A stretch of DNA of 6,425 nt, from the IMG/VR virus record IMGVR_UViG_3300045988_005617, positions 1 through 6,425 of that record; one strand, given 5' to 3'. The notes beneath the pieces were generated by a model that ran no database searches, was not told the DNA's origin, and saw only the letters and a list, made by a program, of their open reading frames with translations. Below are positions 1 to 6,425 of this stretch, in pieces (position 1 is the stretch's first letter; each line of letters opens with the position of its first letter). A program made the position numbers and the translations under genes. The stretch is from a virus.

Positions 1-55
1 TTATAACGTAGACTATTTTTCTGGAGTTTCTCCTTCGTTGGTTTCTTCTTTGCCT
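1..55. repeat. Terminal redundancy, copy 1. It is identical to 6371..6425, the signature of a circular genome linearised with an assembly overlap (unit length 6370 nt).
   Basis: A base-by-base comparison of 1..55 with 6371..6425 shows 55/55 identity. The VP1 reading frame is continuous across the junction. Confidence 0.95.
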
Positions 56-1162
56 GACTCGTCTTCTGATTATTGGAAATCTGATACAATGTTTGACCTC
101 AAATATTGTAATTGGAACAAAGATATGCTAATGGGTGTTCTCCCAAACTCTCAATTTGGCGATGTTGCTGTTGTTAATGTTGAAAGTTCTTCTATTTCTG
201 ATGTTGTTTTGGGCAAAGGTTCTGTGATGAGTCCCGTTGGTGTTGCTTCTGCTGTTGCTTCTAGCTCTGCACCAGTTCCTTTCTTTGCCCTTCAAGCTTC
301 TGCTTCAAAGACTCTCCCTGTAGGTTCTACTCTTCGTGTCGATTTGACCTCATTACAATCTCAATTTACTGTTCTTGCTCTTCGTCAAGCTGAAGCCCTT
401 CAACGTTGGAAAGAAATCAGTCAATCTGGTGATAGTGATTACCGTGAACAGATACGTAAACATTTTGGTGTGAACTTGCCTCAAGCTCTTTCCAATATGT
501 GTACTTACATCGGAGGTATTTCCCGTAATCTTGATATCAGTGAGGTTGTAAATAATAACCTTGCTGCTGAAGGTGATACTGCTGTTATTGCTGGTAAAGG
601 TGTTGGCGCTGGTAATGGTTCTTTCACCTATACTACCAATGAGCATTGTGTTGTTATGTGTATTTATCATGCTGTTCCTTTGCTTGATTATACAATTACT
701 GGTCAAGATGGTCAGTTACTTGTGACTGATGCTGAGTCTCTCCCGATTCCAGAGTTTGATAATATTGGTATGGAAGTTCTTCCTATGACACAAATTTTCA
801 ATTCTCCAAAAGCCTCTATTGTTAATTTGTTTAACGCAGGTTATAATCCTCGTTATTTCAATTGGAAAACCAAGCTTGATGTTATTAATGGCGCCTTTAC
901 CACTACTCTCAAATCTTGGGTTTCTCCCGTTACCGAATCTCTTCTTTCTGGTTGGTTTGGTTTTGGATATGCAGAAGGAGATGTTAATAAAAATAACAAG
1001 GTTGTCTTGAATTATAAGTTTTTCAAGGTTAATCCTTCTGTTCTTGACCCTATTTTCGGTGTTAGTGCTGACTCTACTTGGGATACTGACCAGTTATTGG
1101 TTAACTCTTATATTGGTTGCTACGTTGCTCGTAATTTGTCTCGTGATGGTGTACCTTATTAA
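2..1162 (+). CDS. VP1: Major capsid protein VP1, C-terminal part (5' partial in window coordinates, a continuation of 5691..6425).
   Basis: The frame is open from position 2 (YNVDYFSGVSPSLVSSLP...) and is the same frame as track ORF 38..1162, whose listed M is an internal TTG. It ends at TAA 1160..1162. 5691 minus 6370 falls in the same codon phase as position 2. Confidence 0.95.
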   Translation, partial: YNVDYFSGVSPSLVSSLPDSSSDYWKSDTMFDLKYCNWNKDMLMGVLPNSQFGDVAVVNVESSSISDVVLGKGSVMSPVGVASAVASSSAPVPFFALQASASKTLPVGSTLRVDLTSLQSQFTVLALRQAEALQRWKEISQSGDSDYREQIRKHFGVNLPQALSNMCTYIGGISRNLDISEVVNNNLAAEGDTAVIAGKGVGAGNGSFTYTTNEHCVVMCIYHAVPLLDYTITGQDGQLLVTDAESLPIPEFDNIGMEVLPMTQIFNSPKASIVNLFNAGYNPRYFNWKTKLDVINGAFTTTLKSWVSPVTESLLSGWFGFGYAEGDVNKNNKVVLNYKFFKVNPSVLDPIFGVSADSTWDTDQLLVNSYIGCYVARNLSRDGVPY

Positions 1163-1176
1163 TTTTTGTTTTGATT

Positions 1177-1659
1177 ATGATAGGAAAATTTAATTCTTTG
1201 GAGTGTCTGGAACAATGTTCTGGACTTATTCCTAATGTTGAGCCTGACGCTTTTGCAGTTGCTCCTGAATTTGATTGTACTGAGGAGCTTCGTGTAGAGA
1301 TTGATGATACTGATGAAACTCGACCAGTTCGTTATACTTCTGATGTTCGTTTGATTCTCCACACCAAGGATTTAGCTTCCCGTGCAGGTCTTGCTATTGC
1401 CTCTAAGTTTGGTCAGAGTAAACAATCTGCTTCTCAGATTCAGCAGATTATGGATAACATGTCTGATGATGACCTTTTGGCAACGGTTCGCTCTCGTCAC
1501 GTTCAGTCTCCTTCTGAGATTATTGCTTGGTCTAAAGATTTGTCTGCTTATGCTGAAAATCTTGAGTCCCAGGCTCAAGAATTGATTGATGTTGAAAATA
1601 CTAAACAAGAAGCAGAAAAAGCGGCTGCTGCTTCCGCTGATGCTGCTTCCTCTGAATAA
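1177..1659 (+). CDS. Acidic 160-aa protein lying between VP1 and VP2. It is a putative internal scaffolding (VP3-like) protein, and that function is inferred mainly from position.
   Basis: Track ORF 1171..1659 starts at a TTG, and the first ATG is at 1177. Codons are strongly T-ending, like the other phage genes. The protein has a D/E-rich centre (EIDDTDETRP, MSDDDLL) and an Ala/Glu-rich tail. Its TAA stop shares one base with the VP2 ATG (TAATG at 1657..1661), which suggests translational coupling. Confidence 0.7.
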   Translation: MIGKFNSLECLEQCSGLIPNVEPDAFAVAPEFDCTEELRVEIDDTDETRPVRYTSDVRLILHTKDLASRAGLAIASKFGQSKQSASQIQQIMDNMSDDDLLATVRSRHVQSPSEIIAWSKDLSAYAENLESQAQELIDVENTKQEAEKAAAASADAASSE

Positions 1660-2795
1660 TGGGCCTTCTTGGTTCAATTGCTGGTGGTCTCCTTAACGTT
1701 GGTTCTTCTGCAATTCAAAATTCACAGAATAGACAAAATGTTCAGGAGACTAACCGGATGAACTATAAAATTAACCAGATGAATAACCAGTTTAACGAGC
1801 GTATGGCTATACAGCAGCGTAATTGGCAGGAAAATATGTGGAATAAGGAAAATACTTATAATACTGCTTCTGCCCAGCGCCAACGTCTTGAAGAAGCTGG
1901 TTTGAATCCTTATCTGATGATGAATGGAGGTTCTGCCGGAGTTGCTCAATCTTCTGGTACCGGTGCTGCTGCATCTTCTTCCGGAAGTGCTGTTATGCAA
2001 CCTTTTCAGGCTGATTATTCCGGTGTCGGTTCTTCCATTGGCAATGTTTTTCAATATGAGTTGATGCAATCTGAAAAGTCTCAATTACAAGGCGCTCGAC
2101 AGCTTGCTGATGCTAAAGCTATGGAGACCCTCTCTAATATTGATTGGGGTAAACTTACTGATGAAACTCGTAATTATTTGAGGTCTACTGGATTGGCACG
2201 TGCTCAGCTTGGTTATGCCAAGGAACAGCAGGAGGCTGATAACATGGCAATGACTGGTCTTATTATGCGTTCTCAACGTGCTGGTATGCTTCTTGATAAT
2301 GAGGCTAAAAGTATTTTGAATAAGTATCTTGACCAACAACAACAGCTTGATTTGAATGTTAAGGCTGCGGATTATTACCAGCGTATGTCTGCTGGCTATC
2401 TTTCTTATGCTGAAACTAAAAAAGCTTTGGCTGAAGAAGCTTTGGCTGCTGCTCGTGCCCGTGGTCAGAATATTGCTAATAAGGTTGCGGACCGTATTGC
2501 GGAGTCTCAAATTGCTGCTAATATTGCAGCTAACGAGTCTGCTGCCGCTTTTCATAATGAAGAGCTTCGTTTGGGTCTTCCTCAAGATAATGCTCGTAGT
2601 AAGAATATTGAGGAATGGTATCGCTCTAGGAATGAGAAGAAAAAGTATCAGTATTTTGATGCTGATAAATGGGTAAGTTATGGCACTAGTATTGGTAATA
2701 CTATAGGTAATTTCTTGCCTCATAGAATTATTTCTAAGTCTTTTTCTCATTCTATTAATAGTAATACTAATTCTAATTATAATTACAGTCATTGA
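1659..2795 (+). CDS. VP2: VP2 minor capsid / DNA pilot protein (functional analogue of phiX174 H).
   Basis: The 378-aa product has a Gly-rich hydrophobic N-terminus (MGLLGSIAGGLLNVGSS). It is followed by the motif typical of microvirus VP2 proteins: Q/N-rich ...FNERMA...NTYNTASAQRQRLEEAGLNPYLMM. A long A/Q/E-rich predicted coiled-coil region comes next, then an S/N-rich tail. The stop is TGA 2793..2795, immediately followed by TAA. Confidence 0.85.
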   Translation: MGLLGSIAGGLLNVGSSAIQNSQNRQNVQETNRMNYKINQMNNQFNERMAIQQRNWQENMWNKENTYNTASAQRQRLEEAGLNPYLMMNGGSAGVAQSSGTGAAASSSGSAVMQPFQADYSGVGSSIGNVFQYELMQSEKSQLQGARQLADAKAMETLSNIDWGKLTDETRNYLRSTGLARAQLGYAKEQQEADNMAMTGLIMRSQRAGMLLDNEAKSILNKYLDQQQQLDLNVKAADYYQRMSAGYLSYAETKKALAEEALAAARARGQNIANKVADRIAESQIAANIAANESAAAFHNEELRLGLPQDNARSKNIEEWYRSRNEKKKYQYFDADKWVSYGTSIGNTIGNFLPHRIISKSFSHSINSNTNSNYNYSH

Positions 2796-2818
2796 TAATT
2801 TTTTTTATACTATGTTTT

Positions 2819-2852
2819 CCCGGTGCGTATCACTACGTGCCGGGTTTTTTTT
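2819..2852 (+). terminator. Rho-independent terminator closing the VP1/VP3-like/VP2 transcription unit.
   Basis: An 11-bp stem pairs CCCGGTGCGTA (2819..2829) with TACGTGCCGGG (2834..2844) around the loop TCAC, followed by T8 (2845..2852). Two stem positions are G-T/G-U pairs on the + strand and would be C-A mismatches on the - strand. No T-run follows the hairpin on the - strand, so the terminator is + strand specific. Confidence 0.85.
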
Positions 2853-2864
2853 GTTATTTGGAGT

Positions 2865-2901
2865 AATTTCCGGCAACCGCGCGAAGCGTGGTTATACACC
2901 C
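2865..2901 (+). repeat. Module A: AATTTCCGG, an 8-bp hairpin with a GAA loop, then TATACACCC.
   Basis: aatttccgg lies at 2865..2873. The hairpin pairs aaccgcgc (2875..2882) with gcgtggtt (2886..2893) and includes one G-T pair. tatacaccc lies at 2893..2901. Confidence 0.6.
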
Positions 2902-2993
2902 CCCTGAATTCCGGGAGACCCCGTCGACTGGAATCAGAGCCGTTAGGCTATAGTACTGCCATCCTCTAAGCTTGCCGTTTGCAACGCGTAAGC

Positions 2994-3036
2994 AATTTTC
3001 CGGAGAGCTTCTCTCTCCCGTCGCCGCTATACACCC
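2994..3036 (+). repeat. Module B: AATTTTCCGG, a hairpin, then TATACACCC (a paralogue of module A).
   Basis: aattttccgg lies at 2994..3003. The hairpin pairs ggagag (3002..3007) with ctctcc (3013..3018) around the loop cttct. tatacaccc at 3028..3036 is an identical 9-mer to 2893..2901. Confidence 0.6.
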
Positions 3037-3106
3037 TGTCGCTTGCGACCCCGTTTGGCCGATTTACTTAAAACGATTCAAGTCCGTAGGAAGAAGAATC
3101 GCCTAA

Positions 3107-3130
3107 GTGATGAACGTAGTGAAGAACGTG
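3107..3130 (+). repeat. Tandem 12-mer, two copies (GTGATGAACGTA / GTGAAGAACGTG), inside a purine-rich tract.
   Basis: 3107..3118 and 3119..3130 match at 10 of 12 positions. GAACGT recurs at 3112 and 3124, and GCGAAC at 3139. Confidence 0.55.
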
Positions 3131-3193
3131 TGAGCACAGCGAACATAAAAATCAGAATTCCTTAAAGTCTCTGTATATTTGGCGAAGCCTACA

Positions 3194-3265
3194 TGAGTTT
3201 GCCCGAAGGGAAAGCGATTTACCTCATCGCTTTCAGTGTCCTCTTGTCTTATATACGCAAACTCA
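3194..3265 (+). other. Nested multi-helix element: a 9-bp closing stem encloses a GAA mini-hairpin and an 8-bp hairpin.
   Basis: tgagtttgc (3194..3202) is the perfect reverse complement of gcaaactca (3257..3265). Inside lie ccc-gaa-ggg (3202..3210) and the perfect 8-bp pair gaaagcga (3210..3217) / tcgctttc (3227..3234) with a 9-nt loop. A pyrimidine-rich single-stranded run follows at 3235..3256. Confidence 0.5.
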
Positions 3266-3324
3266 CAGACATCCGTCCACCCATATAGTTTATTGTTTAT
3301 TTATGTTAATAATATATGTGCATA

Positions 3325-3357
3325 TTTGCTCATTTCAAATTTTTATTTATATCTTTG
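3325..3357 (+). promoter_or_regulatory. Candidate Bacteroidetes-type promoter (-33 TTTG, -7 TAnnTTTG) for the small-ORF/peptidase/VP4 unit, and probably VP1 as well.
   Basis: TTTG lies at 3325..3328 and TATCTTTG at 3350..3357, which matches TAnnTTTG exactly. They are separated by 21 nt and sit in an AT-rich stretch about 43 nt upstream of the ATG at 3400. Confidence 0.45.
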
Positions 3358-3399
3358 TTCCGTCTTTAAAATCAATGTATAATTAAAATTTTGAATGTT

Positions 3400-3573
3400 A
3401 TGGAAAAGTATTATTTGTGTTCTGTTCAATCAAAGGTCAACCCTAATCAGAATGAAACCATTCTTGTTCCCGTTGATGAAGTTTCCGAATTTGTTTCTTC
3501 GAATCTTCGTCCTGATTGCGTGCTTATTATTTCTCATTGTTCAACTTTTAAAACAATTTCTGATGAAAAGTGA
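3400..3573 (+). CDS. Hypothetical 57-aa protein of unknown function.
   Basis: Track ORF 3391..3573 starts at a TTG, and the first ATG is at 3400 (MEKYYLCSVQSK...). The T-ending codon bias matches the other phage genes, whereas the competing 85-aa frame (3395..) is F/L-rich off-frame noise over this stretch. The TGA stop overlaps the next ORF by 11 nt. Confidence 0.45.
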   Translation: MEKYYLCSVQSKVNPNQNETILVPVDEVSEFVSSNLRPDCVLIISHCSTFKTISDEK

Positions 3574-3652
3574 AACTAAATCTAAAATTTGGGCTGCAAT
3601 TATTGCCGCTGCTGTCAGTCTTCTTACGTCTATTTCTCAGATATTTTCGTAA
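3563..3652 (+). CDS. 29-aa single-pass membrane peptide (MKSETKSKIWAAIIAAAVSLLTSISQIFS), a holin-like or membrane-anchor candidate.
   Basis: An internal ATG at 3563 lies within track ORF 3395..3652. The peptide has a charged N-terminus (net positive), then about 20 hydrophobic residues, and uses T-ending codons. It ends at TAA 3650..3652, only 3 nt before the peptidase ATG and in the same reading frame. Confidence 0.4.
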   Translation: MKSETKSKIWAAIIAAAVSLLTSISQIFS

Positions 3653-3655
3653 GTC

Positions 3656-3964
3656 ATGAATCCAGAGTTAATGAGTTTTATTGAATGGCTTCTTCGTAGG
3701 AACATTCACTTTGTTGTCACTTCTGCTTTTCGCACCAAAGCACAGAATGACGCGTGTAATGGTTCTAAGAATTCTCAGCATTTGACTGGTGACGCTGTTG
3801 ACCTTCAGCCTTTAAGTCTTTCGGTTGATACTTTCATTTCTGAAATTAAAAGTTCTTCTTTTAAGTTCGACCAACTTATAAAGTATCGCACTTTTATTCA
3901 TATTTCTTTTGCTCGTGGTCGTAAGCCCCGTCAAATGGAACTTAATTTTACTGATAGAAAATGA
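3656..3964 (+). CDS. Peptidase M15-type (LAS / D-Ala-D-Ala carboxypeptidase-like) zinc cell-wall hydrolase, the probable endolysin.
   Basis: The 102-aa product carries VVTSAFRTKAQNDACNGSKNSQHLTGDAVD, matching the M15A pattern S.(Y/F)R...N...G....S.H..G.A.D. The H-x6-D pair is H42 (3779..3781) and D49 (3800..3802), and a C-terminal FIHIS contains H82 (3899..3901). There is no signal peptide or TM segment. The stop overlaps the VP4 start (ATGA at 3961..3964). Confidence 0.8.
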   Translation: MNPELMSFIEWLLRRNIHFVVTSAFRTKAQNDACNGSKNSQHLTGDAVDLQPLSLSVDTFISEIKSSSFKFDQLIKYRTFIHISFARGRKPRQMELNFTDRK

Positions 3965-5658
3965 TTACTAAAGCATTGCAGAATAAGTTAGAGACTCGTT
4001 GTCAAAACCCTCGTACGGTTGTCAACAAATATACTCATGAGCCTGTTGTTGTTTCTTGTGGCTCTTGTCCTTCTTGTGTTCTTCGTCGTTCTGGTATTCA
4101 GACTAACCTGCTCACTTCTTATTCTGCTCAATTTCGTTATGTATATTTTGTTACTCTTACTTATGCTCCTTGCTTTCTTCCTACTTTGGAGGTTTCGCTT
4201 ATTGAAGCTTGTACGGACGATATTGCGGACGTATCCTGCGTTCCTGATATCAATAATTTGGATGCTGGTGACCTTAATACTTATCTGTTTGGTTTTCGTA
4301 GCGTTCCTCGCTCCGCTTCTGTTAAATTAAAAACCTCTACTGTTGAGCGTGTCTTTAAGGACCCTAAGGTAAGTTTTTCTTATCCTATGAAGCCCAAGGA
4401 GTTGTTATCTATTCTTGGAAAGATTAAACATTATGTTCCGAATAGGATTCCTTATATTTGTAATCGTGACCTTGATTTATTTTTAAAACGTTTAAGAAGT
4501 TATTACCCAGATGAAAAATTGCGTTATTACGCTGTATCAGAATACGGACCTACAAGTTTCCGCCCGCATTGGCATTTGTTATTGTTTTCCAATTCCGAAC
4601 GATTCTCGGAAACTGTTCTTGAAAATGTATCTAAGGCTTGGTCTTACGGACGTTGTGATGCGTCATTGTCGAGAGGATTCGCAGCACCGTATGTTGCGTC
4701 GTATGTTAATAGTTTTGTCGCTTTACCCAACTTTTATACACAGATGCCAAAATTGGTGCGCCCTAAATCCTTCCATTCCATTGGATTTACAGAATCAACT
4801 TTCTTTCCTCGAAAGGTACGAATTGCCGAAATTGACGAAGTTGCCGATAAGTGCCTTAATGGAGTCCGCATTGAGCGCGATGGATATTTTCGCACAATTA
4901 AACCTTCTTGGCCGCATCTCCTTCGATTATTCCCCCGATTTTCGGATTCTATTCGTAAATCTCCATCGAGTATTCACCAGTTATTATCTGCTTCGTTCAC
5001 AGCGCCCGGGAGAGTCATTCGTAGCGGATGCGCTGATATAGGATGTGACCCTTTTAATGCATTTTCTAAGCAAAGCATATTATCTTTTTGTAAACAGTAT
5101 TTAAATTATGTAGATAATTATGGAAAAAGAAATGATGAGCGAAATGTTTTTTCGCCTAAAGGTAATTTACCGTATAGTGATGTTCTCATTTTGTCTGAAT
5201 GTCGTTTGTATGATGGTGTTGATTTGGACTCTGCTCATCGCACGTCCCGCCTTTACCGTTTTTTCCTCGGAATTGCAAAATTTATTCGAACATATTCTCC
5301 AACTGGAGACGCAGGATGCTTTTGGTCCAGCGGCACTCCTGAAGGAGAACTCTTTGGACGAGAAAGATTCTTGCGTATCATTTCCGACAAAATAGTTGAT
5401 TTTTGGAATCGTTACGATTATAATCGTCTTGTTGATTTTTATCAGATTTTAGAGGATTCTGATGATAAGGATTTGGTTGATTTTGAACTTCGTAACTATT
5501 CTTTTCGTTATAATAGGACTGTTCTTGATAAGGAAAAACCTTATAATGAATTACCTCTTGTTCGTCTTTTGGCTGCTGCGTCATTGATGAAATGTCGAGA
5601 TAAGGTTAAACACAAGAAGGTTAATGATTTGTTTGGTATTTTTTCTCATCAGGATTAA
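3961..5658 (+). CDS. VP4: VP4 replication initiation protein (HUH rolling-circle endonuclease, phiX174 gene A family).
   Basis: The N-terminal Cys cluster is C14...C33-G-S-C36-P-S-C39. Motif I is FVTLTY (4147..4164) and motif II is PHWHLLLF with the HUH triad (4564..4587). Motif III, YVASYVN, has two Tyr residues spaced by three (4690..4710), as I recall for the phiX174 A-protein active site (YVAKYVNK). Confidence 0.95.
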   Translation: MITKALQNKLETRCQNPRTVVNKYTHEPVVVSCGSCPSCVLRRSGIQTNLLTSYSAQFRYVYFVTLTYAPCFLPTLEVSLIEACTDDIADVSCVPDINNLDAGDLNTYLFGFRSVPRSASVKLKTSTVERVFKDPKVSFSYPMKPKELLSILGKIKHYVPNRIPYICNRDLDLFLKRLRSYYPDEKLRYYAVSEYGPTSFRPHWHLLLFSNSERFSETVLENVSKAWSYGRCDASLSRGFAAPYVASYVNSFVALPNFYTQMPKLVRPKSFHSIGFTESTFFPRKVRIAEIDEVADKCLNGVRIERDGYFRTIKPSWPHLLRLFPRFSDSIRKSPSSIHQLLSASFTAPGRVIRSGCADIGCDPFNAFSKQSILSFCKQYLNYVDNYGKRNDERNVFSPKGNLPYSDVLILSECRLYDGVDLDSAHRTSRLYRFFLGIAKFIRTYSPTGDAGCFWSSGTPEGELFGRERFLRIISDKIVDFWNRYDYNRLVDFYQILEDSDDKDLVDFELRNYSFRYNRTVLDKEKPYNELPLVRLLAAASLMKCRDKVKHKKVNDLFGIFSHQD

Positions 5659-5690
5659 TTTTTGTTTTTCTTTTAATATTTTTTATTTTT

Positions 5691-6425
5691 ATGGCTTCTT
5701 ACACTGGAATGTCCAATCTCCAAAATCATCCTCACCGTTCTGGATTTGATATTGGACGTAAAAATGCATTTACTGCGAAAGTTGGTGAGCTTCTTCCCGT
5801 CTATTGGGATATTTCTATGCCTGGTGACAAGTACAAGTTCAACGTTGAATACTTTACCCGTACTCAGCCTGTTGAAACTTCTGCTTATACTCGGTTGCGT
5901 GAATACTTTGATTTTTATGCTGTTCCTTTGCGCCTTCTTTGGAAATCTGCTCCGTCTGTGTTAACACAGATGCAGGCTGTTAATCAGATTCAAGCACTTT
6001 CTTTTACACAGAATTTGTCACTCGGAACTTATCTGCCGTCTTTATCTCTTTCTGCTCTTTCGGGTTCTTTGTATTATTTAGCCGGCAATACCTCTAATCC
6101 TGGACAGTCTAAAGCTCTCACAAATTGTTTTGGTTTTTATCGTTCTGATTTATGTTATAAATTGTTATCTTATCTTGGTTATGGAAATTTTATTAAGGAT
6201 AAGTCCTCTTCTCGTTGGTGGTCTACATCTTTAGTTGCTGCCTCTTCTGGTAATTATACTCAACAGTATATACAGAATAATTACGTAAATCTCTTTCCTT
6301 TACTTGCTTATCAGAAAATTTATCAGGATTTTTTCCGCTGGTCTCAATGGGAAAATTCAAATCCCTCTTCTTATAACGTAGACTATTTTTCTGGAGTTTC
6401 TCCTTCGTTGGTTTCTTCTTTGCCT
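5691..6425 (+). CDS. VP1: Major capsid protein VP1 (Microviridae F-protein family), N-terminal part. It runs off the window end and continues at position 56 (6372..6425 duplicates 2..55). The full protein is 613 aa on the circle.
   Basis: ATG at 5691 follows a 32-nt T-rich spacer after the VP4 stop. My hand translation has no stop through 6425: MASYTGMSNLQNHPHRSGFDIGRKNAFTAKVGELLPVYWDISMPGDKYKFNVEYFTRTQPVETSAYTRLREYFDFYAVPLRLLW. This shows the characteristic microvirus capsid N-terminal pattern (R.S.FD, G.L.P, PGD, F.AVP.R.LW). The ORF is missing from the supplied track only because it has no stop inside the window. Confidence 0.95.
   Translation, partial: MASYTGMSNLQNHPHRSGFDIGRKNAFTAKVGELLPVYWDISMPGDKYKFNVEYFTRTQPVETSAYTRLREYFDFYAVPLRLLWKSAPSVLTQMQAVNQIQALSFTQNLSLGTYLPSLSLSALSGSLYYLAGNTSNPGQSKALTNCFGFYRSDLCYKLLSYLGYGNFIKDKSSSRWWSTSLVAASSGNYTQQYIQNNYVNLFPLLAYQKIYQDFFRWSQWENSNPSSYNVDYFSGVSPSLVSSLP
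6371..6425. repeat. Terminal redundancy, copy 2 (identical to 1..55).
   Basis: Exact 55-nt match to the start of the window. Confidence 0.95.

Follow-up and report, generated by a model that had tools for sequence, protein, structure and literature searches.

A modular hairpin cassette in the gene-free island of a gut microvirus genome as a candidate complementary-strand origin

Results

The gene-free island and its boundaries

The DNA analysed here (the window) is a stretch of 6,425 nucleotides, positions 1 to 6,425 of the IMG/VR virus record IMGVR_UViG_3300045988_005617. As positions 1-55 recur at 6371-6425, it represents a complete circular microvirus genome with a unit length of 6370 nt. 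All of its genes lie on the + strand, with the capsid gene VP1 spanning the ends and the scaffold gene also present. Our subject is the GC-rich island between the pilot protein gene and a group of small open reading frames (ORFs), which holds three hairpin-bearing modules, A, M and B (Table 1), and which is a candidate for the signal at which synthesis of the complementary strand begins.

A first-pass annotation of the window had singled out this island as free of ORFs, rich in G+C, lacking the T bias of the rest of the genome and lying between a terminator and a promoter, and each part of this description holds. Neither strand of 2796-3390 contains an ORF of at least 60 residues; the longest has 48, and the minus strand has none of at least 30. 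The GC contents it gave, 57% and 49%, are exact (57.0% over 2861-3060 and 48.8% over 2861-3290), compared with 38.0% outside the island and 37.7-38.6% in VP1. Module A has the composition A.21, C.32, G.23 and T.24, against a T content of.36 for the genome, so that the T excess is absent from the island. Protein coding was considered and rejected, as differences of 1-4 nt in loop length among relatives break every frame. In the annotation of Dulem virus 257 (L003, PP511330.1) a 'hypothetical protein' coding sequence at 1671-1874 covers module B; because of these frame-breaking differences between relatives it is probably spurious.

On the upstream side the G+C-clamped hairpin and its T run form the only terminator-like site within 2600-3600; they are conserved in relatives and would end the pilot-gene transcript, and the hairpin may double as the first hairpin of the folded element. 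On the downstream side the promoter at 3325-3357 consists of TTTG (3325-3328), a 21-nt spacer and TATCTTTG (3350-3357), is conserved in the alignment of relatives, and fits the Bacteroides consensus, -33 TTTG / -7 TAnnTTTG. Lying between these two signals, the island is probably part of no mRNA.

Table 1. Features of the island and of the neighbouring genes (positions in the window).
Feature	Position	Strand	Detail
Pilot protein gene	1659-2795	+	
Terminator-like hairpin, G+C-clamped	stem 2819-2844, element 2819-2852	+	11 pairs, 7 G-C, then T run
Module A, core cassette	2862-3036	+	
H1	2875-2893	+	GCGAAGC mini-hairpin, conserved pair G2879-T2889
TATACMCC motif	2893-2900 and 3029-3036	+	
H2, long hairpin	2904-2937	+	
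H3	2938-2949	+	CCGTTAGG
Conserved sequence block	2950-2964	+	ATAGTACTGCCATCC, nearly invariant
Conserved sequence block	2982-2990	+	CAACGCGTA, invariant in 56/56 sequences
H5, weak hairpin	3000-3020	+	74% paired
Module M, optional inserted hairpin domain	3037-3177	+	
M hairpin	3038-3049	+	gCTTGc
M hairpin	3067-3107	+	apex TCCGTAGGA at 3083-3091
M hairpin	3124-3144	+	
Module B	3178-3288	+	
Hb1 mini-hairpin	3181-3189	+	GGCGAAGCC
Long-range stem, 9 bp, invariant	3194-3202 / 3257-3265	+	
Hb2 mini-hairpin	3202-3210	+	CCCGAAGGG
Hb3 hairpin	3212-3232	+	
Invariant block, then tail	3257-3270	+	GCAAACTCACAGAC, AC ahead in most sequences
AT-rich spacer, 52% T	3289-3394	+	carries promoter of downstream operon; bounds the element, outside it
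Small ORFs	from 3391/3395	+	
Peptidase_M15_3 gene	3656-3964	+	E 1.7e-11; between small ORFs and Rep
Rep gene	3961-5658	+	

Strand-specific folding and covariation of the hairpins

When compared with dinucleotide-shuffled controls, the + strand of the island folds better than expected with both DNA parameters (z-score -3.38, with 0 of 100 shuffles as good) and RNA parameters (z-score -2.66); the minus strand gives z-scores of -0.78 and -1.08, respectively, and better-than-shuffle folding is confined to the + strand.

Covariation in module A was tested on 56 aligned sequences, with slid pairing partners and 500 shuffles as controls. Hairpins H1, H2 and H3 are each 95-100% paired, and with H5 included 92.9% of all cells are paired, compared with 32-42% when the partners are slid. 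Twelve pairs have changed on both sides, against 2-5 with slid partners, and none of the 500 shuffles matches the score. Two G-T pairs that can form in the + sense only are conserved, G2879-T2889 in 50 of 55 distinct sequences and G2913-T2929 in all 55. The first-pass annotation had described the island as highly structured, with G-T pairs peculiar to the + strand; the G-T pairs at 2879-2889 and 2913-2929 are real, and both the shuffle comparison and the compensatory changes, which exceed those in the slid and shuffled controls, bear the structure out.

Between H3 and H5 the picture is one of conserved sequence, and no pairing within 2950-2999 is backed by compensation. Helices that could be drawn in 2970-3000 (GCTTG...TAAGC, TTGC...GCAA, and inner CGTT/AACG stems) were dropped because substitutions there are uncompensated, and this region is kept as sequence and not as helix. 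A candidate closing stem for the junction of module A (GGC/GCC, or CGGC/GCCG with the 3' end) has only G-C to G-T changes. A listing of covariation between all pairs of columns yielded mainly trivial G-T/G-C combinations and carries no weight here. The word TATAC(A/C)CC or TATATAC recurs unpaired after H1, at the end of module A and ahead of the 3' arm of the B stem (2893-2900, 3029-3036 and 3250-3256 in the window; 1533-1542 and ~1680 in L008), and is retained in Dulem virus 262 despite the different interior of its element; it could serve as a recurring site of protein binding or a start site.

Module B behaves in the same way: across 39 sequences 98.8% of cells are paired, compared with 23-45% with partners slid, and three pairs have changed on both sides, in 13, 6 and 15 sequences. 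The 9-bp long-range stem shows no variation on either side and, being invariant, gives no evidence of pairing; its invariance suggests sequence-specific recognition over mere pairing. This stem also includes TGAGTTTG, a 'minus-7-like' word that recalls the Bacteroides -7 element, and one may speculate that an origin used by RNA polymerase, as in the Ff phages, is conceivable here. For module M the few copies that could be aligned were inspected by eye, and the stem at 3067-3107 shows compensatory sets, with CGATTC/GAATCG alongside CGGTTC/GAACCG, CGATCC/GGATCG and GCGCGTC/GACGCGC.

Covarying helices, strand-specific G-U pairs and the RNA z-score of the + strand would all suit an autonomous structured non-coding RNA (ncRNA), or several, in which modules A, M and B were RNA domains expressed from a promoter of their own and acting on host or phage expression. 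We regard this, the main rival reading, as unlikely. The first-pass annotation had offered it as one of three hypotheses; its fit to the covariation and to the G-U pairs stands, and what is missing is a recognisable family, promoter or terminator, as well as loops suited to RNA (see below). Neither strand of the whole window matches an Rfam 15 family at E<=1, and no transfer RNA or transfer-messenger RNA was found in the window. In the window lineage the element begins about 10 nt past the terminator-like hairpin and its T run, with no sigma-70-like site ahead of 2862 on the + strand, although weak or unusual promoters could escape such a search. There is no TAnnTTTG between the T run and module A, nor a convincing Bacteroidetes-type promoter before module A in either of the two lineages that carry it, and inspection of both lineages revealed no hairpin with a T run after module A or B.

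A loop signature typical of DNA mini-hairpins

Nearly all of the hairpins are closed by a C-G pair and capped by GNA or GNNA, in which the G and the A are kept and N varies freely. The loop of H1 is cGNAg (GTA, GAA, GCA or GGA) in 50 of 56 sequences, and that of H3 is cGNAg or cGNNAg in nearly all 56 (GTTA, GTA, GAA, GTCA, GCCA or GTAA), with GTTA the commonest. A GNA loop caps Hb1 in 39 of 39 sequences and Hb2 in 35 of 39, and the apical loop of M is GTA, GAA or GGA.

We counted C-G-closed GNA or GNNA motifs with stems of at least 3 bp on the + strand of the whole genome. All five lie within the island, at 2880-2888, 2938-2949, 3083-3091, 3181-3189 and 3202-3210, where dinucleotide shuffles of the island predict 0.24 and none of 2000 reaches five. 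Among them GCGAAGC is found twice, CCGAAGG once (3203-3209) and CCGTTAGG once. Sequences of the type GCGNAGC and GCGNNAGC are known as 'mini-hairpin DNA', which is extraordinarily stable, has far weaker RNA counterparts and binds single-stranded DNA-binding protein (SSB) poorly, according to a 2026 review by its discoverer (PMC13037366). The same review places mini-hairpins at the primase start sites of the microviruses G4 (GCGAAAGC) and St-1/alpha3 (GCGTTAGC), and also in RSF1010 ssiA (CCGAAGG) and in the hairpin promoters of N4 (PMC13037366).

The loop set thus points to DNA, not RNA, as the molecule that folds. GTTA, the loop that H3 carries most often, falls outside the GNRA type, and most of the loops that an ncRNA would have to use, C-G-closed GNA or GTTA, are stable in DNA and weak in RNA. 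Other loops would sit well in RNA, namely the CUUG loop in M, the GNRA variants (GCAA, GTAA) of the H3 loop in some relatives, and the cUUCGg and GCAA hairpins that Dulem virus 262 carries beside its H1 fragment. This argument between DNA and RNA is taken from the literature, because neither the RNA nor the DNA parameter set of ViennaRNA includes a bonus for GNA loops.

Modular exchange between unrelated microviruses

A blastn search of 50,697 phage records (query 2796-3399, word size 11) found the island only in faecal microviruses, in the Dulem, bajarodmic and mar groups, and scanning IMG/VR and metagenome assemblies for patterns raised the number to over 100 contigs, most of them ~6.3 kb long and from the human gut. 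The first-pass annotation had treated the island as a single unit. Alignment shows instead a mosaic of at least three cassettes, in which the middle module, of 140 nt, is not always present. A+B, of ~303 nt, is the form usually found; others are A alone, A+M+B, and a fragment in which H1 of module A continues into different sequence (Dulem virus 262, L105, L186 and L189). Module M occurs in about 11 of the more than 100 contigs, about a tenth.

The order of pilot gene, island and small ORFs recurs in GenBank, IMG/VR and ENA gut assemblies from separate studies, and the suspicion of an assembly chimera, raised in the first-pass annotation, is refuted because the flanks are collinear in many independent assemblies. 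Module A, with 74-88% identity to the window copy, is also present in genomes that are otherwise unlike the window even by tblastx. Both lineages carrying it are genuine microviruses, having Phage_F and Rep domains, and since modules have been exchanged between unrelated microviruses the island must be regarded as mobile. Window-like microvirus sequence with an intact island was also seen in two long gut metagenome contigs, L170 (ENA OPSU01000027, 88,276 nt) and L165 (27,412 nt). Prophages within a bacterial chromosome, concatemers and assembly errors are all possible sources of these microvirus parts.

A selfish or neutral mobile non-coding insert, whether similar to a miniature inverted-repeat transposable element, derived from a transposon end or captured from a host, would also be mosaic and optional, would turn up highly similar in otherwise unrelated genomes, as module A does at 87-88% identity, and would have a composition foreign to the genome. 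Capture from a host or another element had been proposed in the first-pass annotation, and the mobility that it implies is confirmed among unrelated microviruses. The donor it calls for was not seen within our pattern scans: one-per-species bacterial genomes, scanned with the module-B pattern only, gave 2 hits, both due to chance, although diverged copies would escape exact patterns; a gut metagenome scan with an exact module-A pattern gave 30 hits, all of them collinear microvirus sequence and none in other contigs; and a plasmid search gave no match. Terminal inverted or direct repeats and target duplications were not noticed. The island also keeps a constant intergenic position across a large clade, compensatory changes preserve its hairpins, and 300-440 nt of useless DNA are unlikely to last in a 6.4-kb genome with overlapping genes. 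We therefore consider a purely selfish or neutral insert very improbable.

Cassette orientation follows strand composition

In a second lineage module A stands alone (L015, L022, L142, L144, L146, L159, Microvirus mar45 (L006) and Microvirus mar40 (L007); mar45 and mar40 are in GenBank). Gene order here is pilot, Rep, module A, small ORFs and VP1, and in all genomes the module lies immediately past the Rep stop codon on the strand opposite to the genes. In L176, a further genome with an A-rich coding strand, H1 and M are found at that place, again antisense to the genes. The reversed lineage keeps the H1 G-T pair and the GNA loops in the cassette's own sense, and for this reason selection must act on the same cassette strand in both orientations; a comparable G+C-clamped hairpin also lies ahead of module A, on the same strand as the module.

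At first sight an antisense cassette runs counter to a signal on the packaged strand, but the composition of these genomes is mirrored as well, which would answer the objection. The coding strand of the reversed lineage has 40-43% A and 18-20% T, with 45-51% A at codon position 3, where the window clade has 48-61% T; non-coding spacers are T-rich on the cassette-sense strand in both lineages. Cassette and genes share a strand in the some 90 cassette-bearing contigs whose position 3 is T-rich; in the 9 whose position 3 is A-rich, which fall into three arrangements (the mar45/mar40 type, the L015 type, and L176 with H1+M), the two lie on opposite strands, with no exceptions either way. For an ncRNA either orientation relative to the genes would be natural, as for any independent gene, but the perfect tie of orientation to the T-rich strand would be left unexplained, and in the reversed lineage the transcript would meet Rep head-on.

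In single-stranded DNA (ssDNA) phages, the strand that is exposed in single-stranded form is marked by a surplus of T at silent sites, which arises through C-to-T deamination (PMC3278643). A broad clade of gut microviruses is A-rich on the coding strand, with up to 51% A and 11-17% T at codon position 3 (L015, L022, L144, L159, L176, mar45, mar40 and L198-L201), mirroring the T-rich coding strand of the window clade and of classical ssDNA phages. Three of its members that lack the cassette, L198, L199 and L200, have non-homologous GC-rich intergenic regions with clusters of mini-hairpins on the antisense, T-rich strand, and in four of five A-rich intergenic regions (those of L015, L198, L200 and L201) the antisense strand folds better than the coding strand relative to shuffles.

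The simplest single explanation would be that the cassette acts in the single-stranded genome and that in the A-rich lineage the packaged strand is the one complementary to the genes. The wider proposal, that the whole A-rich clade (including mar40 and mar45) packages the gene-complementary strand and that origins matched to their hosts are traded as cassettes between positive-sense and negative-sense lineages, we advance tentatively, placing it somewhat short of an even chance. Packaging of the antisense strand is not forbidden by ssDNA biology, because transcription needs the double-stranded form in any case. The family is otherwise not known to carry genes on the complementary strand (Roux et al. 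2012), and we found no paper reporting such a reversed polarity. If the proposal is true, the rule that all Microviridae are positive-sense falls, and the packaged strand of metagenomic ssDNA phages could be read from strand composition combined with origin polarity.

Discussion

Comparison with known single-strand initiation signals

To our knowledge, complementary-strand origins have not been defined outside the enterobacterial phiX174/G4 group, and we know of no account of the route by which gut microviruses, which are abundant and mostly uncultured, convert their ssDNA to the replicative form. The primase-dependent complementary-strand origins (ori_c) of G4, St-1, alpha3 and phiK, where primase makes its primer at a defined site beside hairpin I on SSB-coated DNA, are the closest parallel to the island. 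They too are non-coding and intergenic and form several stable hairpins, with GCGNAGC/GCGNNAGC motifs and the same GTTA and GAA-type loops; they lie on the packaged strand, which for the island would be the T-rich strand, and exclusion of SSB is the principle proposed for both. In contrast, the island has no sequence homology to them by blastn, is two to three times larger, and is built of separable modules swapped between unrelated lineages whose hosts are probably Bacteroidota.

The signals ssoA/ssoU and RSF1010 ssiA/ssiB of rolling-circle and broad-host-range plasmids, of 150-300 nt, are likewise structured and non-coding. They function in a single orientation relative to the displaced strand and are interchangeable and host-dependent, traits that the polarity and exchange of the island may parallel. 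The CCGAAGG mini-hairpin of RSF1010 ssiA is present in the island at 3203-3209, whereas no plasmid matches the island and no RSB-like element was recognised in it; CS-6 (TAGCGT), the hallmark of ssoA, has no counterpart beyond a look-alike in the H1 loop and stem of most relatives, which reads AAGCGT in the window. The phiX174 primosome assembly site and the Ff minus-strand origin are also intergenic hairpins that start the complementary strand on SSB-coated DNA, but the former is one hairpin region read by PriA and the latter mimics a sigma-70 promoter, and neither is recognisable in the island. Among microviruses, intergenic hairpins with compensatory substitutions have been proposed as possible negative-strand origins in the tiny, environmental reekeekee- and roodoodoo-microviruses (PMC9865509). 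Those consist of one or two hairpins of 13-64 nt and are confined to their clades, whereas the island has many hairpins and several modules and occurs across unrelated lineages. No cassette of this kind was found described in the literature that we searched.

A candidate complementary-strand origin

On the basis of its conservation, its modularity, the covariation of its hairpins, its strand specificity, its loop signature, its horizontal distribution and the polarity rule, we favour the reading that the island, folded in the packaged ssDNA, may act as a complementary-strand origin (a single-strand initiation signal) that is modular and exchanged horizontally, and we put the chances of its being right and wrong about level. 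This was also one of the suggestions of the first-pass annotation, and it has emerged as the best supported, by covariation, loops, the position in the gap between terminator and promoter, and polarity; the priming function, the enzyme involved, and DNA rather than RNA as the folded molecule, are the parts that we infer.

Incoming ssDNA would be coated by SSB, while the C-G-closed GNA/GNNA mini-hairpins and the longer stems of A, M and B would stay folded and free of SSB. This would expose the invariant 9-bp stem of module B and the invariant unpaired blocks, CAACGCGTA among them, to a host priming enzyme, for which a primase, a PriA-type primosome or RNA polymerase are candidates. The primer laid down there would be extended to give the double-stranded replicative form. 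Module A alone is seemingly enough in one lineage, and B and M might be additional or alternative signals, in the manner of ssiA and ssiB of RSF1010. Such a cassette would be interchangeable because the signal reads the host machinery and not phage proteins, and it could have moved among unrelated microviruses of the same hosts, which are probably Bacteroidota and not enterobacteria, with its polarity always set on the strand that is single-stranded.

The strand-specific structural evidence applies identically to a folded ssDNA with another role, such as an attachment site for XerC/XerD as in CTXphi, the nucleation of packaging or condensation, or protection from nucleases or SSB. Just 3' of the island, at 3299-3313, lies the word ATTTATGTTAATAAT, whose TGTTAAT is conserved in most relatives; it resembles the XerD-binding arm of dif (TTATGTTAAAT in E. 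coli), and could be a dif-like attachment site as proposed for Bacteroidetes microvirus prophages. Integration through dif-like sites without a recombinase of their own has been put forward for Bacteroidetes microviruses (PMC3091885), and together with the likeness at 3299-3313 it lends something to the attachment version. The CTXphi site, however, is a forked hairpin of two inverted dif-like sites, and we saw no such pair in the island. Packaging in microviruses is tied to rolling-circle synthesis, with no packaging signal known in the family. Moreover, every ssDNA phage needs a complementary-strand origin, and the precedent for mini-hairpins is specific to priming sites. A role of folded ssDNA other than priming therefore seems improbable.

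Several points weigh against a complementary-strand origin on the packaged strand. The case for priming and for the packaged strand is drawn from sequence. At 300-440 nt the element exceeds the known signals of G4, phiX174 and Ff in size and has no sequence similarity to them, as blastn returned gut microviruses only. The choice of DNA over RNA relies on published loop properties to which folding-energy models are blind, and the two near-universal G-T pairs and the CTTG loop of M are no less typical of RNA. Behind the polarity rule stand no more than about three or four independent evolutionary events, codon preference instead of reversed packaging could account for the mirrored composition of the A-rich lineage, and the A-rich genome L201 has its sole intergenic mini-hairpin on the coding strand.

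If the complementary-strand origin is accepted as a working reading, the cassette offers a recognisable target for priming assays with Bacteroidota proteins. It would likewise be a marker of hosts shared between unrelated microviruses, and a natural case of several DNA mini-hairpins acting together.

Other features of the window

The Peptidase_M15_3 gene found downstream of the small ORFs belongs to a type of accessory gene that some gut microviruses have acquired horizontally (Roux et al. 2012). Two rearrangements were seen at the terminator-like hairpin. Its inner 16 nt in the window (2824-2839, GCGTATCACTACGTGC) are the reverse complement of the counterpart in relatives (TCGTAGTGATACGCG), while the outer clamp CCCGG/CCGGG is the same in both, so that the core of the hairpin has been flipped. 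In bajarodmic virus 410 (L004, 1293-1520) the segment upstream of module A is present as a tandem duplicate in units of ~100 nt, which take in the terminator-like hairpin and the T-rich stretch after it.

Within Rep, TGATATCAATAA at 4245-4256 is one base off the phiX174 plus-strand origin core (TGATATTAATAA), itself located within the phiX174 Rep gene; the word is not clearly conserved in the close relative L016. In the relatives L002-L005 a similar word, CTGATATTG...ATAAC, sits in the AT-rich spacer after the island.

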